Shown piece after piece: positions 54,689-58,923 of a DNA stretch of 64,000 bases (the stretch's first letter is position 1; every line of letters begins with the position of its first letter). Source of the stretch: an uncultured Chlamydiae bacterium. Lineage in GTDB: Bacteria; Chlamydiota; Chlamydiia; Chlamydiales; 2-12-FULL-49-11. The position numbers and the translations under genes are program-made. The stretch lies in assembly GCA_937996705.1 (NCBI GenBank), contig CALKUQ010000021.1:64527-128526 (forward strand), read 5' to 3'. The notes beneath the pieces were generated by a model, which worked only from the letters and a program-made list of their open reading frames with translations, was not told the DNA's origin and did not search any database.

Positions 54689-56170
54689 TTAAGAACCGAG
54701 TCTTTTAGAAACAAGGTAGGACTTGCAGATCTTGATTTTAGATTCAATCGCTTCACTGTTATTCTCGAGATGGGTTAAGAGCATTTTTGTTCTTAAATTA
54801 TTTTTAAAAAGAGATTTATGCTTTTTTAAAAACTTCCAGAAAAGGCCATCCCAAATATCTGACCACTCCCCTTTTTTGTAATCGCTCATCTTTATGATAT
54901 AATTGGAACCGGAAATGTAGGGTTTTGTTGTCATAGAGCCGCCATTTGCATATTGACTCATCCCATAAATATTCGGAACCATCACCCAATCATAGGCGTC
55001 AACGAAAAAGGTCATAAACCACTGGTAGACTTCATTTGGATCAATTTCCAGAAGGAGCATAAAATTCCCAAGGACCATCAATCTTTCAATATGATGGCAA
55101 TACCCTGTGTTCCGTATTTTTTGAATTGTTTGATCGATTGGATCGATTCCAGTAGTCCCATCCCAAAATGATTTTGGCAGCTTATTTGTATGATTAAAAA
55201 AGTTTGAAGTTCTATCGCTATTTCCCCTAACAAAGTACATAGCCCTCATAAACTCTCTCCAACCAATAATTTGCCTAATAAAGCCCTCCGTAGAATTTAA
55301 AGGAATATTTGCTTTGGAAAACATTTCCACTGTTTTTTGGACCACTTCAGAGACCGATAAAATCCCAATATTGATGAGGGGGGATAAGACACTATGAAAG
55401 AGAAACGACTCATTTTTCACAATTGCATCTTCATAGGGGCCAAACAAGTCTAATTTGTTCTGTAAAAAATCCGATAATGCGATGCGCGCTTCCTTAAAAT
55501 TGGTCGGATAGTAAAATTGCTTATCACAGCCTACACTTGATGGGAAATGTTTAGCGATGTACCCTTTTGCCTCTTTTATAAACCCGTTTTCTTTTGGGAT
55601 GTAGAGGTTAGGCAAAGGCTGGTTCTTTGGAATCTTTTTCCGATTCTCTGTATCGAAGCTGAATTTATCTCCCAGCGGTTTCCCCCCCTCCATCAAGATA
55701 TCCATCTTTTTTCTTTGGTACATATAAAAGGAGGCCATAGAAAAGTGGGTTTTTTTTGAAAATTGGAGTTCGATTTCTTCCCGAGTGCAAAAAAAAGCTG
55801 GTGAATCGTACCGTTTAATTGAAAATCCCAACTGCTTCGAAGCGTGAAGAAGATCCTCTTCTAGCCACTGATCTTCGAAACTTGCTAGATGAATTTCTGT
55901 GACTTGTTCTTTTGCTAATTTCTTAAATACCTCTCCCCTGTGATTTAAAACGTGACTTTCCAGATAGATGACATGGTGTCCTTTCTCTGTTAAGTAGAGC
56001 TCATACTGCTTCATGGAGGCTCGAAGAAGAATAAGTCTTTGTTTATGAAATGTCTGCACTTTAAAATAGAGAAATTCTTCCGCTAAATAAATGATCCGAT
56101 TTTTCTCTAGAGCAGGATGATTTTCAAAGAGTTGATCGGGAAAAATTAGGGTAGCTTTAGTCATATTCAA
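54689..56170 (-). CDS. Cryptochrome/photolyase-related protein (COG3046, prokaryotic (6-4) photolyase/CryB-PhrB class)
   Basis: The N-terminus is LIFPDQLF and the C-terminal block is GYCHHIERLMVLGNFMLL...FVDAYDWVMVPNIYGMSQYANGG...KPYISGSNYIIKMSDY, typical of this class. Confidence 0.8.
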   Translation of the reverse strand: MNMTKATLIFPDQLFENHPALEKNRIIYLAEEFLYFKVQTFHKQRLILLRASMKQYELYLTEKGHHVIYLESHVLNHRGEVFKKLAKEQVTEIHLASFEDQWLEEDLLHASKQLGFSIKRYDSPAFFCTREEIELQFSKKTHFSMASFYMYQRKKMDILMEGGKPLGDKFSFDTENRKKIPKNQPLPNLYIPKENGFIKEAKGYIAKHFPSSVGCDKQFYYPTNFKEARIALSDFLQNKLDLFGPYEDAIVKNESFLFHSVLSPLINIGILSVSEVVQKTVEMFSKANIPLNSTEGFIRQIIGWREFMRAMYFVRGNSDRTSNFFNHTNKLPKSFWDGTTGIDPIDQTIQKIRNTGYCHHIERLMVLGNFMLLLEIDPNEVYQWFMTFFVDAYDWVMVPNIYGMSQYANGGSMTTKPYISGSNYIIKMSDYKKGEWSDIWDGLFWKFLKKHKSLFKNNLRTKMLLTHLENNSEAIESKIKICKSYLVSKRLGS

Positions 56171-56173
56171 AGA

Positions 56174-56917
56174 TTATAAGGGATTTGTTTTTAAATGAGC
56201 AAGCCCGCCATCCACTGAGAGAATTTCTCCAGAGATCCAAGAACTCTCTTCTGACAAAAGCCATGCAATAGAAAAAGCAATATCTTGAGGTGTGCCAATT
56301 CTTCCGAGTGGATGAAACTTAAGGGAGTGTTTAAGCGCCTCCGGATTTTGAGTGATTGACGAGGAGAGAGGGGTCTTAGTAAGTCCGGGAGCAATCCCGT
56401 TGATTCGAATCCCGCTTCCCGCATAAGATGCGGCTGCAGAGCGAATTAAACCCTCGATTCCACTCTTTGCAGCTGAGATTGCCTCGTGATGAGCAAGTCC
56501 AACTTTTGCAGCTCCTGATGAGATTAAAACAATCGACCCCTCTTTTTGAGCCTCCATCACTTTCAACGCCTGTTTTAAAATATAAAATGAGCTTCCTAGA
56601 TTCACCCTCATCACCTCTTCCCAGACTTTGGCGCTTGTCGCTTGAATGGGTTTTATGCAAAAAGAGCCAATGCAATTGACAACTCCGTCAATTTTTTGAC
56701 CTTGAGCTGAAAGTTGGGAAAAAAACGATTCCACATCCTCCTCTTTTGCTCCATCAACAACGTAATATTTTTGAGAGAGTTTTAAAGAGAGCTCTTTTAA
56801 AACTTCCTCATTTCGAGAACATAATAGGACGCTACAACCTCGGTTAGTTAAAATATTGGCAAGCTCTGATCCAATTCCTCCAGTCGCTCCAAAAATAACA
56901 ATTGTTTTTCCTTTCAT
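56174..56917 (-). CDS. Short-chain dehydrogenase/reductase family protein (atypical active site)
   Basis: It has the Rossmann GATGGIGSELA and IRINGIAPG. The expected YxxxK reads AISAAK, so Ile replaces Tyr. Confidence 0.8.
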   Translation of the reverse strand: MKGKTIVIFGATGGIGSELANILTNRGCSVLLCSRNEEVLKELSLKLSQKYYVVDGAKEEDVESFFSQLSAQGQKIDGVVNCIGSFCIKPIQATSAKVWEEVMRVNLGSSFYILKQALKVMEAQKEGSIVLISSGAAKVGLAHHEAISAAKSGIEGLIRSAAASYAGSGIRINGIAPGLTKTPLSSSITQNPEALKHSLKFHPLGRIGTPQDIAFSIAWLLSEESSWISGEILSVDGGLAHLKTNPL

Positions 56918-56935
56918 CTGTAATAGACCCCACGT

Positions 56936-58534
56936 TTAAAATATGAATCGGATTTTTGCCCAGACCCAATATGCCATACGAAATAATGGAGAAAAAAGGG
57001 GGGCTTGTAAAAAAATTGCAAGGAGGGGAAGATCTGTTCTTGCATAAACTTCAGAGAGGGTGTCGATCCCTTTAAGAATTTTTCCCCTATGGGTTAAACC
57101 GTGTATCGATTTCATCGCCTCCTCAAAAGTAAAGGCCGTTGTGATTTTCTCCAATTCTCTCTGCGATGTGAGACTTGCATACTCTAGTCTCCCTGTTTGA
57201 TTCCGCTTTTTTAAACTCCTCATCTCTTTTGCACACACAGGACAGGCACTATCAAAAAATACTGTAACAGATTCTTTCAACCTTTCACGATTTGTATAAA
57301 ACTCCTCTATAACGACCATTTTTCTATTAAATTGTAAAAGAAGAGATAAAAGGATCCCCCATGAAAAAAAAATTGTTACATAAGAACCTAATGAGGGGAC
57401 AATAACTCCCCCCAGTTTTTCTCCTGCTAAATAGGATAGACAAGCCCCCAATCCGCCAAATAAGAAGGAAATGAAGAGATTTTTATTGAGAAAGAGCATT
57501 GAGGAATTGAGGGTAAGTGAAAAAACAGGATAAAGAGTTAGAAGCCATAAAGGGGGGAAATAGACTTGATTGAGATATATAACCGTTTTAGTCTGAATAA
57601 AAATCGATTCTTGAATAAGGCCTAAAAAAAGGGCAATTCCAGAAAGAGGGATAGCGATAAGAAAACTTCTTCTGTCATATTTGGAAAAAAGAAAAAGTTG
57701 AGAGAGGTAAAAAAGCCCTGCTCCTAGAAGAGGAATTACGGTAGAGTTTTTCGCTCCAAAACTCACAATTACATACCAAGCAATTGTATATACAGTTCCA
57801 TTGATTAAAGATAGCGGCGCAAGTGAAGGGGTTTTTTCCGAGTATTTTTTGAAATCTGGGTGGTTTTTCATTCTATCTTCTAGTGGCTTTACTCCGGAGA
57901 CAAAAATAATTAGAAACGTAATCAAGATCGGACTGATGATAAAGAAGAATCCCCCAGGGAGAGCTGCGCAAATCAACCAAATCCCCCACCATTGAACAAT
58001 CTCTCCTAGATAATTGGGATGCCTTACATAGCCCCAAAGACCTTTCATAAGAAGTTGTTTGCCGTTTGCCCCATTTTTTTTAAACTGAGCTAGTTGATAA
58101 TCGCTTACCCCTTCTATCAAAAATCCGATCGTCCAAATAACAATAGGAATGAACGAAATTTCTGTTGCGGGGTGCGTTTGAATCCAAAGAATCGGAAGGG
58201 CTACGATATACAGAATCACTCCCTGCAAAAGGAAGACCTGAAAAAATATTTGAGTGGGAGTCTTCCATTGTTCGTAGCGAAAGTCTTCCCTACGTCCTCT
58301 ATTTCTCCTATAAATATGAACACTCAAGCGAATCGCCCAAGCTGAGACTAACAAACTTACAATCATGCTATTACAAGAAACTTCATTGAGGAGAAATGAG
58401 GTCCATGTAACAATAAGAAATCCAATTCCCCAAAATGTGTCTGCTAGATCTTTTCGCTTTTTTGCAAGCGAGAATCCAAACGCAAGAAGAGTGAATACAA
58501 AAAGAGAACCAAGGGGGGCTAAAAAATTTTCCAA
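56936..58534 (-). CDS. Fusion membrane protein: DUF1295 (steroid-5-alpha-reductase/ICMT-like) + extra TM region + C-terminal DCC-family thiol-disulfide oxidoreductase (DUF393)
   Basis: The DUF1295 motif is GLWGYVRHPNYLGEIVQWWGIW. The DCC motif is VFFDSACPVCAKEMRSLKK with a conserved C-terminal tail. Confidence 0.75.
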   Translation of the reverse strand: MENFLAPLGSLFVFTLLAFGFSLAKKRKDLADTFWGIGFLIVTWTSFLLNEVSCNSMIVSLLVSAWAIRLSVHIYRRNRGRREDFRYEQWKTPTQIFFQVFLLQGVILYIVALPILWIQTHPATEISFIPIVIWTIGFLIEGVSDYQLAQFKKNGANGKQLLMKGLWGYVRHPNYLGEIVQWWGIWLICAALPGGFFFIISPILITFLIIFVSGVKPLEDRMKNHPDFKKYSEKTPSLAPLSLINGTVYTIAWYVIVSFGAKNSTVIPLLGAGLFYLSQLFLFSKYDRRSFLIAIPLSGIALFLGLIQESIFIQTKTVIYLNQVYFPPLWLLTLYPVFSLTLNSSMLFLNKNLFISFLFGGLGACLSYLAGEKLGGVIVPSLGSYVTIFFSWGILLSLLLQFNRKMVVIEEFYTNRERLKESVTVFFDSACPVCAKEMRSLKKRNQTGRLEYASLTSQRELEKITTAFTFEEAMKSIHGLTHRGKILKGIDTLSEVYARTDLPLLAIFLQAPLFSPLFRMAYWVWAKIRFIF

Positions 58535-58923
58535 TAAGATCCAACCTTCAAGCTAATTCCTGCAGTTGCAGCAGAGATGAAAGTTCCCCACAAAAGATCA
58601 TAAATCACAATTTTCAAAGGCCAACCTCGAAGGGTTGCAAAGTTTGTTAAGTCATAGGTAGCATATGCAACAAAGCCAAATAGAGCTCCGCATAATAGGG
58701 CGTTTTTTATAGAAGCAGTTTCCACAGAGGGCAAAATTGCAAAAAAAACAAGGCCTCCAATGTATATTAGATAAAAAAGAAGAGCTGGAACTAACTTAAA
58801 TTGGGGTGCCATCAAATGCCCAATCTCTCTTTGATAAAGAGTTTTGGCAATCACACCAAGCCAAAGCATATCGATCAAAAAGAAAATCAGAACCGCTATT
58901 AGATAAAATTTCACGAAGGTCAT
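58519..58923 (-). CDS. DUF2177-like small membrane protein
   Basis: 134 aa with 4 TM helices and an N-terminal FLIDMLWLGVIAKTLYQ pattern, recalled from DUF2177 proteins. It overlaps the downstream gene by 16 nt. Confidence 0.5.
   Translation of the reverse strand: MTFVKFYLIAVLIFFLIDMLWLGVIAKTLYQREIGHLMAPQFKLVPALLFYLIYIGGLVFFAILPSVETASIKNALLCGALFGFVAYATYDLTNFATLRGWPLKIVIYDLLWGTFISAATAGISLKVGSYWKIF

Follow-up and report, generated by a model that had tools for sequence, protein, structure and literature searches.

A four-gene string in an uncultured Chlamydiae bacterium as a probable local form of a light-stress gene neighbourhood known from many bacteria

In a 64,000-nt stretch of DNA from an uncultured Chlamydiae bacterium (the window), four open reading frames (ORFs) follow one another on the minus strand at positions 54689-58923 (Table 1). 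A preliminary description had linked their families to the response to singlet oxygen and light and had considered such a module unexpected in an obligate intracellular lineage. The question raised by this locus is whether the four genes act together in a light-stress unit and, if so, whether they are controlled by the regulators of the known light-stress systems. The ORF list confirmed the spacing initially described, a 16-nt overlap between the first two genes followed by gaps of 18 nt and 3 nt, and Pfam agreed with the families assigned there (DUF2177, DUF1295/DCC, SDR and DPRP). The second ORF also contained a DUF2878 domain that had gone unnamed.

Table 1. Features of the four-gene string and its surroundings (window positions; aa, residues of the fusion protein)
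Feature	Position	Strand	Remarks
DUF2177 membrane protein, first gene	58519-58923	-	134 aa; PF09945
DUF1295-DUF2878-DCC1 triple-fusion membrane protein	56936-58534	-	532 aa, TTG start; Pfam
DUF1295 domain of fusion	aa 19-235, nt 57830-58480	-	PF06966, E 5e-56
DUF2878 domain of fusion	aa 243-397, nt 57344-57808	-	PF11086, E 1.3e-18
DCC1-like thiol-disulfide oxidoreductase domain of fusion	aa 425-529, nt 56948-57262	-	PF04134, E 2e-17
SDR, N-S-I-K subfamily	56174-56917	-	247 aa; adh_short_C2
Prokaryotic (6-4) photolyase-family protein, DPRP/FeS-BCP clade, last gene	54689-56170	-	493 aa; PF04244
Divergent intergenic region, 172 nt	58924-59095	-	contains promoter candidate, inferred from sequence
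Upstream neighbour gene, divergent	59096-60841	+	
Downstream neighbour gene, convergent	53778-54635	+	

Since the upstream neighbour is divergent and the downstream neighbour convergent, any promoter of the four genes must fall in the 172-nt intergenic region. A promoter scan found no significant promoter-like site. A weak candidate, comprising a -35 element TTGAAT (58958-58953), a 17-nt spacer and a -10 element TACGAT (58935-58930) located 6 nt upstream of the ATG, scored only 8/12, below the scan threshold. The counterpart in a genome of the same genus (G179, locus L038) was arranged alike (TTGAGT, 17 nt, TAGGAT, 6 nt, ATG), and this candidate may be the promoter of all four genes. Within the string, neither predicted terminators (7 vs 5.0 ± 2.5 in shuffled sequence) nor predicted promoters (10 vs 11.5 ± 3.3) were enriched, and searches of the region returned no Rfam family and no meaningful repeats. 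The gene order in G179 was identical, the 16-nt overlap included, with a protein identity of 72-87% by domain. The spacing and its conservation suggest that the four genes are co-transcribed.

A gene-neighbourhood search, which the preliminary description had proposed as a check, revealed recurrent linkage. DUF1295 genes lay within 9 kb of DUF2177 at 48 of 80 loci sampled from many phyla (Proteobacteria, Bacteroidota, Firmicutes, Patescibacteria, Acidobacteriota and others), and true DUF1295-DUF2177 fusion proteins were also found (P0319, P0324, P0335). The same distance took in CFA synthase at 17 of the 80 loci, DUF1365 at 13, amine oxidase at 13 and an ECF sigma factor gene at 9 (in Alpha- and Betaproteobacteria); proteobacterial loci are those that add these four. 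DegV/FakA-type genes were present at 11 of the 80. The association with cfa, DUF1365 and amine oxidase given in the preliminary description is real in this survey and in Legionella drozanskii (L223), where a single 6-kb string holds DUF2177, DUF1295, CFA, DUF1365, amine oxidase, an SDR of the same subfamily as that in the window, and TspO. The SDR and photolyase genes form a second recurrent pair. A photolyase gene was found within 6 kb of the N-S-I-K SDR at 13 of 50 loci across phyla (DPRP 10, class-I-type 6), and the two genes were mostly immediate neighbours with a shared orientation, as in Rhizobium sp. G21, Asticcacaulis endophyticus, Planctomycetaceae and Burkholderiales. At L159 and L160 the SDR gene is followed by the DPRP gene after a 2-nt gap. 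Elsewhere, the SDR gene is followed by UvdE (L164, a Planctomycetota MAG) or adjoins a MerR-B12 (CarH/LitR-type) regulator (L162, a Verrucomicrobiales MAG).

Among 300 Chlamydiota genomes sampled, 44 carried DUF2177 and 66 carried DPRP, so the module is less surprising in this lineage than had been thought. DPRP occurred in 32 of the 44 DUF2177-positive genomes (odds ratio 17, Fisher p 2e-15, uncorrected for phylogeny). By coordinates, the two genes were separated by about 5 kb or less in 9 Chlamydiota genomes and were directly adjoining at L048 and L076, and a DUF1295 or DUF2878-DCC gene was near DUF2177 at 15 of 40 chlamydial loci. Other chlamydial DUF2177 loci contained TspO, SOUL, DoxX_2, a class-I-type photolyase gene and a DUF2867 protein that has an NAD-binding domain. 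Gene order among chlamydiae was highly variable. This variability would be expected if two functionally unrelated modules, a membrane pair (DUF2177 and the DUF1295 fusion) with a housekeeping role and a DNA-repair pair (the SDR and the photolyase), simply abutted in a variable region and were transcribed together without a shared physiological trigger. The end of the G179 synteny directly downstream of the photolyase gene and the scarcity of DPRP (2) and of the N-S-I-K SDR (0) near DUF2177 at the 80 diverse loci point the same way, and the two pairs were seldom together outside the Chlamydiota-Verrucomicrobiota loci examined. However, members of the pairs recombine elsewhere: 1) DUF2177 with DPRP at L048 and L076, 2) the SDR with DUF2177 at L049 and, SDR first, at L158 (a Verrucomicrobia MAG), and 3) the SDR with DUF1295, CFA, DUF1365 and amine oxidase at L170 and L223. 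The genome-level odds ratio and the separate ties of each pair to light-related genes (10.1101/2021.02.16.431466) likewise argue against unrelated modules, and we regard this explanation as unlikely. It is considerably more probable, in our judgement, that the string is one compact transcription unit made of two recurrent pairs (DUF2177/DUF1295 and N-S-I-K SDR/DPRP), which belong to a light/UV and photo-oxidative-stress neighbourhood and work as proposed below.

The last gene product matched the DPRP (E 4.2e-52) and FAD_binding_7 (PF03441, E 1.3e-08) domains and, over residues of about 5-470, the structures 9hnk, 3zxs (CryB) and 4dja (PhrB) with E values of 4e-77 to 2e-72. Three of the [4Fe-4S] ligands of PhrB, C350, C438 and C441, were replaced by Pro, Lys and Glu, respectively, C454 fell in a 10-residue deletion, and all four cysteines were missing from the 120 closest homologues. 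The absence of the cluster cysteines places the protein in a published cysteine-less subgroup, outside FeS-BCP proper. The catalytic His366 and the Mg2+-site residues Asp179 and Asp254 (PhrB numbering) were kept in the window protein and in 120/120 homologues, as were W342 and W390 of the electron path in the window protein and 119/120. Y391, which we take to be part of the PhrB photoreduction path, was Phe in the window protein and in all 120. The closest characterized likeness is to PromaPL of Prochlorococcus marinus (subgroup M, prokaryotic (6-4) photolyases without an Fe-S cluster), with which the protein shares the PhrB/CryB fold, full-length homology, the loss of the four cysteines and the retention of the catalytic histidine and Mg2+-site aspartates (10.1101/366252; PMC9178010). 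The likeness is one of sequence features, and the chlamydial/verrucomicrobial clade differs in that Phe replaces PhrB Y391 across the 120 closest homologues.

PromaPL repairs (6-4) lesions in vitro, with a very low activity that is about 30,000-fold below that of PhrB (10.1101/366252). This feeble repair, the substitution at Y391, the lack of other known light regulators in the genome and the membership in the family of CryB, for which regulatory functions are reported (PMC9178010), could point to a cryptochrome like CryB of R. sphaeroides. Such a protein would chiefly sense blue light and, rather than repair DNA, would regulate or partner the redox and membrane products of the three genes upstream. 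Nevertheless, lesion binding and repair require His366 and both Mg2+-site aspartates, all of which are invariant, the partner SDR is also paired with the DNA-repair enzyme UvdE, and a second photolyase gene, of class-I type, on another contig (C41) fits a division of labour between CPD and (6-4) repair. A sensor without repair function is therefore quite improbable. The favoured reading is that the 493-aa protein belongs with the cysteine-less, PromaPL-like enzymes and would work as a (6-4) photolyase dependent on FAD and assisted by Mg2+, using blue or near-UV light to reverse UV (6-4) photoproducts in DNA.

The DUF2177 protein matched its family with an E value of 4.5e-48 (162.9 bits vs a cut-off of 26.9), and its AlphaFold2 model (pLDDT 94.4) had four transmembrane helices. 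Foldseek found no relative among solved structures (best E 1.2), leaving its chemistry without a structural hint. D18, W21, Y51, G79, W101, D109, W112 and G113 were invariant in 27 chlamydial homologues. In the fusion protein, the DUF1295 domain (190 bits vs a Pfam cut-off of 20.4) has the sequence RHPNYLGE, corresponding to a conserved motif, RHPxYxGE, present in 115/120 homologues, and weaker Pfam matches to Steroid_dh, ERG4/ERG24, ICMT and PEMT were also obtained. The DCC1-like domain (64.9 bits vs 27.8) has an N-terminal DxxCxxC motif, read as D-S-A-C-P-V-C in the translation. The public gene call is shorter (476 aa), but the length of 532 aa is backed by homologues of 532 aa with 100% coverage.

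The SDR matched adh_short_C2 (E 1.2e-58) and has a dinucleotide-binding motif of the TGxxxGxG class, GATGGIG, at residues 9-15. Arg35 was invariant in the homologue alignment (A4) and occupies a position that is presumably typical of NADP-preferring SDRs. The catalytic tetrad Asn-Ser-Tyr-Lys (YxxxK) was incomplete: Asn, Ser and Lys were kept, while Ile replaced Tyr, and ISAAK was aligned opposite YAASK of 1vl8. The N, S, I and K residues and the motif HE[AS]IxxxK, with an invariant His-Glu three residues before the Ile, were found in 120/120 closest homologues. Since the classical tyrosine is missing, the protein may not be a conventional oxidoreductase. Against the mechanism proposed below, an R. 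sphaeroides mutant that lacked the SDR gene RSP1087 showed no change in its fatty-acid profile (PMC7380195). The preliminary description had counted two modified members in the string; as judged from the alignments, however, an SDR without the Tyr and a photolyase without the cysteines each represent a large conserved subfamily, and the triple fusion is a frequent arrangement among chlamydiae.

The suggested association of these families with singlet oxygen and light has a published basis in the core RpoE-ChrR regulon, with photolyase, SDR, cfaS, UfaD and UfaO (PMC5507510), in the Chlamydomonas SAK1 regulon, where DUF2177, DUF1295, DUF1365, CFA and SOUL are induced by light or singlet oxygen (PMC4067076), and in the LitR light regulon, with phrB, SDR, ufaM and cryB (PMC9758184). 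In Alphaproteobacteria and Pseudomonas, the core RpoE-ChrR regulon with its furan-fatty-acid cluster (RSP1087-1091, phrB, cfaS/ufaM) resembles the string in combining a photolyase with a short-chain dehydrogenase whose length is about 245 aa (PMC5507510; PMC7380195), and related proteobacterial and Legionella loci also hold DUF1295, DUF2177 and TspO. That regulon and the ECF sigma genes beside the cluster at 9/80 loci favour the initial reading of the string as a singlet-oxygen regulon unit whose promoter, upstream of 58923, is of the ECF (RpoE-ChrR) type. However, in a genome that is 92.7% complete, Sigma70_r2 matched only one ORF, of 563 aa and probably coding for the primary sigma factor, and a proteobacterial ECF sigma used as tblastn query gave no match. 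UfaO/DUF1365 was absent from the genome in searches with PF07103 and a DUF1365 query, an amine oxidase query for UfaD found nothing, and inspection of the 172-nt region by eye showed no motif resembling the RpoE promoter consensus. The MerR-B12 protein of L162 likewise detected no LitR/CarH homologue by tblastn of the genome (best E 0.24). With neither an ECF sigma factor nor UfaD, UfaO or LitR detected in the genome, control by RpoE-ChrR is unsupported; the initial reading is largely refuted and very improbable. A CFA synthase (411 aa), which had been thought to be lacking, is encoded on another contig (C26), unlinked to the string. Thus, the chlamydial genome differs from the RpoE-ChrR system in having no detectable ECF sigma factor of that kind, UfaD or UfaO, an unlinked cfa, and a photolyase of the DPRP type rather than the CPD class.

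Two other systems are comparable. The LitR/CarH regulon of Pseudomonas (phrB, SDR, FAD oxidoreductase, ufaM, cryB), for which light induction was shown (PMC9758184), likewise combines an SDR, a cryptochrome/photolyase-family protein and lipid-modifying genes, but the chlamydial genome has no detectable LitR/CarH homologue. The heliorhodopsin-associated DegV/DUF2177/DUF1295 neighbourhood described by Chazan et al., with a proposed role in membrane-lipid remodelling under light (bioRxiv 10.1101/2021.02.16.431466), shares the conserved DUF2177-DUF1295 core; neither heliorhodopsin nor DegV was found in our search of the chlamydial genome, where DUF1295 forms one protein with DUF2878 and DCC1.

The gene order, domain content, photolyase catalytic residues, cross-phylum linkage and absence of known regulators reported here are consistent with the following mechanism. 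While the photolyase would act on DNA, the products of the first three genes would work at the membrane, where the DUF1295 domain, resembling steroid-5-alpha-reductase/ICMT enzymes and joined to DUF2878 and a CxxC DCC1 redox domain, may cooperate with its usual partner DUF2177 and the NADPH-type SDR in remodelling or repairing light-oxidised lipid or isoprenoid molecules. Each of these chemical steps is putative, as is the (6-4) repair activity. The four genes may be induced by light; their expression would probably start from a housekeeping-type promoter in the divergent gap and not depend on RpoE-ChrR or LitR, no RpoE-type sigma factor or LitR having been detected in the 92.7%-complete genome. 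In this chlamydia, a light-stress neighbourhood known from many bacteria takes the local form of a four-gene string, which is therefore a good example of it rather than a new system.

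The four open reading frames of the operon were found precisely where the preliminary description had placed them, and each of its family assignments was confirmed by Pfam, which added a DUF2878 domain in the middle of the fusion protein. The 5' neighbour (from 59096, +) is divergent and the 3' neighbour (ending at 54635, +) is convergent, so that the string can be driven only from the 172-nt gap at 58924-59095. The same order, including the 16-nt overlap, was present at locus L038 of the same-genus genome G179, and synteny with that genome extended from 54707 to 60841, being lost just below the photolyase gene. 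Judged from this layout, co-transcription of the four genes is a well-motivated prediction. The divergent 581-aa ORF also adjoins the operon in G179 (tblastx identity up to 56%). Synteny stops exactly at the three-gene block on the other side, which marks this block as specific to the genome of the window.

Coordinates of the operon genes and of other features (positions in the window unless a contig or locus is named)
Feature	Position	Strand	Remarks
DUF2177 gene	58923..58519	-	ORF listing and Pfam
DUF1295-DUF2878-DCC1 fusion gene, 532 aa	58534..56936	-	TTG start; 16-nt overlap with DUF2177 gene
SDR gene	56917..56174	-	18-nt gap after fusion gene
Photolyase-related gene, 493 aa	56170..54689	-	3-nt gap after SDR gene
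581-aa ORF	59096-60841	+	divergent from operon; no Pfam match
Three-gene block	52397-54635	+	hexapeptide acetyltransferase, unknown 269-aa protein, GT17-like glycosyltransferase; convergent with photolyase gene
348-aa ORF	4933-5979		DAHP synthase-like by eye
TspO/MBR-like ORF, 157 aa	5983-6456	+	tblastn 36% identity to chlamydial family, E 1.6e-10
CFA synthase region (L005)	contig C26, 10454-13549	-	two overlapping ORFs, 293 and 355 aa, precede cfa
Stand-alone DUF2878-DCC1 gene	contig C19, 4929-5654	-	second copy in the genome
DUF2177 gene, probably a pseudogene (L066)	G152:C1:1665685-1666044		one TGA and one TAG
SDR-UvdE pair (L164)	3916-5566		Planctomycetota MAG
SDR and MerR-B12 regulator (L162)	3830-5759		Verrucomicrobiales MAG

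Consensus promoter and terminator scans of the string gave counts at the level of the shuffled-sequence background, and searches of the region for Rfam families and repeats were negative. The promoter candidate, TTGAAT-17 nt-TACGAT, is weak and of the housekeeping type (score 8 of 12). It lies 6 nt ahead of the ATG, so the mRNA would be nearly leaderless if it were used, and G179 keeps a similar arrangement. The RpoE-ChrR control suggested earlier was not supported by the genome assembly (1.81 Mb, 69 contigs, 92.7% complete), where the single Sigma70_r2 match lay in a 563-aa ORF that is read as the primary sigma factor. In this assembly the window is contig C21. Genome queries with proteobacterial ECF sigma, amine oxidase, DUF1365 and DegV sequences gave no match, and PF07103 was absent. 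An ECF/RpoE promoter was rejected for want of any ECF sigma factor in the genome, as was LitR/CarH control, since a homologue was sought in the genome and none was found. A sigma-28-type factor also went undetected; it may be encoded in the missing ~7% of the assembly or be too diverged for the Sigma70_r2 search.

Two conserved pairs make up the operon, one of DUF2177 and DUF1295 and the other of the SDR and the photolyase, and elsewhere their members also recombine with one another. A 10-sequence DUF2177 alignment was used to collect 80 loci from many phyla outside Chlamydiota. DUF1295 was encoded within 9 kb in 48 of these, followed by CFA synthase (17), DUF1365 (13), amine oxidase (13), DegV/FakA-type proteins (11), ECF sigma factors (9), class-I-type photolyase (4) and the DPRP photolyase (2). 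Fifty loci from many phyla encoding the SDR with the N-S-I-K active site, in which Ile replaces the classical catalytic Tyr, carried a photolyase gene within 6 kb in 13 cases (DPRP in 10, class-I-type in 6). The two genes were usually adjacent on the same strand, as in Rhizobium sp. G21, Asticcacaulis endophyticus, Planctomycetaceae, Gemmataceae, Burkholderiales and Pseudoxanthomonas. In Legionella drozanskii a single string encodes DUF2177, DUF1295, CFA synthase, DUF1365, amine oxidase, the N-S-I-K SDR and TspO, and other contigs carried SDR-DPRP (2-nt gap), SDR-DUF2177 and SDR-UvdE pairs or the SDR beside a MerR-B12 regulator. In L164 the SDR gene lies 5 nt upstream of the UvdE UV-damage endonuclease gene, and in L162 it is divergent from the regulator, of the CarH/LitR type, with a polyketide-cyclase-like gene.

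In the 300 Chlamydiota genomes sampled (165 genera), PF09945 (DUF2177) matched 44 (36 genera) and PF04244 (DPRP) matched 66 (49 genera), so the presence of these families in the lineage is not the surprise that had first been supposed. Both are missing from a clade of 1.0-1.2-Mb genomes. Of the 44 genomes that encode DUF2177, 32 also encode DPRP (p 2e-15 for an odds ratio of 17, phylogeny ignored). The neighbours of DUF2177 in 40 chlamydial loci included DUF1295 or DUF2878-DCC (15), DPRP (6) and the N-S-I-K SDR (3). Also recurrent were DoxX_2, TspO, SOUL, class-I-type photolyase, a DUF2867 protein that has an NAD-binding domain, genes that resemble UmuC/UmuD by eye only and a small Pfam-less family with relatives near the SDR in loci L174 and L214. 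Gene order was highly variable, and the exact four-gene order was found elsewhere only in G179. The locus counts inside and outside the phylum show that the neighbourhood named in the preliminary description is real. This recurrent linkage and the light-stress theme stood; ECF control, the lack of cfa, the idea of modified members and the element of surprise did not.

Over its full length the photolyase matched the solved prokaryotic (6-4) photolyases and cryptochromes 9hnk, CryB (3zxs) and PhrB (4dja) (E 4e-77 to 2e-72). All four of the [4Fe-4S] ligands are absent: C350 is replaced by Pro, C438 by Lys and C441 by Glu, and C454 falls within a 10-residue deletion. Homologues are encoded in Neochlamydia sp. 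S13, Estrella lausannensis, Criblamydia sequanensis, Simkaniaceae MAGs and Verrucomicrobia MAGs. The same loss was seen in 120 of the 120 closest homologues (54-100% identical). In this set, PhrB residues H366, D179 and D254 were retained throughout and W342 and W390 in 119, and the Y391 position was always Phe. The cysteines are missing in about 30% of the clade (bioRxiv 10.1101/366252), and the cysteine-less group has been named subgroup M (PMC9178010). Like the window protein, the Prochlorococcus member PromaPL has no Fe-S cysteines, and it carries out Mg2+-dependent repair of (6-4) lesions (bioRxiv 10.1101/366252). The loss is ordinary subgroup membership, not a peculiarity of the window's genome, and the sequence indicates that the protein is probably a working (6-4) photolyase belonging to the cysteine-less subgroup.

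Alignment of the SDR with 1vl8 placed YAASK opposite ISAAK, so that the Tyr of the classical YxxxK motif corresponds to Ile. The N-S-I-K residues and the motif HE[AS]IxxxK were common to all 120 of the closest homologues (45-100% identical), which shows that the change is not a local defect; neither this protein nor the photolyase is a modified member in the sense first proposed. An invariant His-Glu lies one helical turn ahead of the Ile, and the His precedes the Lys by seven residues, as the catalytic Tyr does in the FabI-type enoyl reductases of E. coli. When the genome's FabI-like protein, recognised by its YGGGMSSAK motif and not by a family search, was aligned with the SDR, the FabI Tyr fell opposite the neighbouring His and a Met opposite the Ile. 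These correspondences suggest, as a hypothesis only, an enoyl-reductase-like active-site layout. Deletion of the R. sphaeroides SDR gene RSP1087 left the fatty-acid profile unaltered (PMC7380195). The recurrence of the subfamily beside photolyase and UV-repair genes is the basis of another reading, that it is a dedicated partner in the repair of UV-damaged DNA and not a lipid enzyme, and that it may serve a photolyase by making, reducing or recycling its cofactor or antenna, or may instead act on a UV photoproduct. If true, this would explain the adjacency to DPRP, class-I-type photolyase or UvdE genes across Proteobacteria, Planctomycetota, Verrucomicrobiota and Chlamydiota, and we regard it as improbable. 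The DUF1295-SDR fusions P0336 and P0341 were not counted towards the N-S-I-K link, because a normal YxxxK is present in their SDR part; what they back is no more than a link of DUF1295 to SDRs in general.

The full DUF1295-DUF2878-DCC1 architecture was found in about 45 protein clusters, the DUF1295-DUF2878 form in about 40 more and the DUF2878-DCC1 form in some; all three were present among the fetched chlamydial loci. The fusion retains both the steroid-reductase/ICMT superfamily motif, RHPNYLGE, and the DCC1 motif, DxxCxxC, in intact form. As a single query for related loci, the protein returned only one close relative. The public gene call is a truncated 476-aa form that begins at an internal Met; the 532-aa form (56936-58534, -) is backed by homologues and by a Pfam match from residue 19. 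The stand-alone DUF2878-DCC1 protein is 37% and 49% identical to the corresponding fusion domains, and the two-domain form also occurs in several other chlamydial loci. True DUF1295-DUF2177 fusion proteins were found as well. The predicted structure of DUF2177 is a confident four-helix model, for which a fold search of the PDB yielded no solved relative, the best match having an E value of 1.2. On a 2.59-Mb chlamydial chromosome, a DUF2177 gene near a photolyase gene (L066) is interrupted by two stop codons.

Contrary to the earlier statement that cfa was missing, a CFA synthase gene (411 aa) is present on contig C26. The ORFs preceding it, considered as diverged forms of the DUF1365 protein UfaO and the amine oxidase UfaD, had no Pfam match and were not found in chlamydial DUF2177 loci; they may be unrecognised cfa partners. 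Contig C19 carries a paralogue of the 355-aa one. The genome also has a class-I-type photolyase gene on C41. The TspO-like ORF, which directly follows the 348-aa ORF, is a further member of the light-stress set, unlinked to the operon.

A connection with light and singlet oxygen is drawn from published induction of these families in other organisms (PMC4067076, PMC9758184, PMC5507510) and from a heliorhodopsin neighbourhood study (10.1101/2021.02.16.431466). We consider it fairly likely that one transcript supplies both a (6-4) photolyase, which would be driven by blue light, and a membrane redox set, in which DUF2177, the fusion protein and the NADPH-type SDR would act in the repair or remodelling of lipids or isoprenoids that have been photo-oxidised.

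Current understanding is unchanged by these results; their value lies in compact test cases for the chemistry of these proteins. Three leads stand out, 1) the DUF2177-DUF1295 partnership, seen in cross-phylum adjacency and true fusions, 2) the further addition, in chlamydiae, of DUF2878 and a CxxC-bearing DCC1 domain to DUF1295 by fusion and 3) a clearly delimited SDR subfamily, lacking the catalytic Tyr, that travels with photolyase genes. The definition of this subfamily as a recurrent photolyase/UV-repair neighbour is the most useful by-product. Many environmental chlamydiae, obligately intracellular as they are, retain a UV/light-stress toolkit comprising two photolyases, TspO, cfa and the DUF2177/DUF1295 pair, which fits exposure to sunlight in surface waters, as extracellular elementary bodies or in transparent protist hosts.
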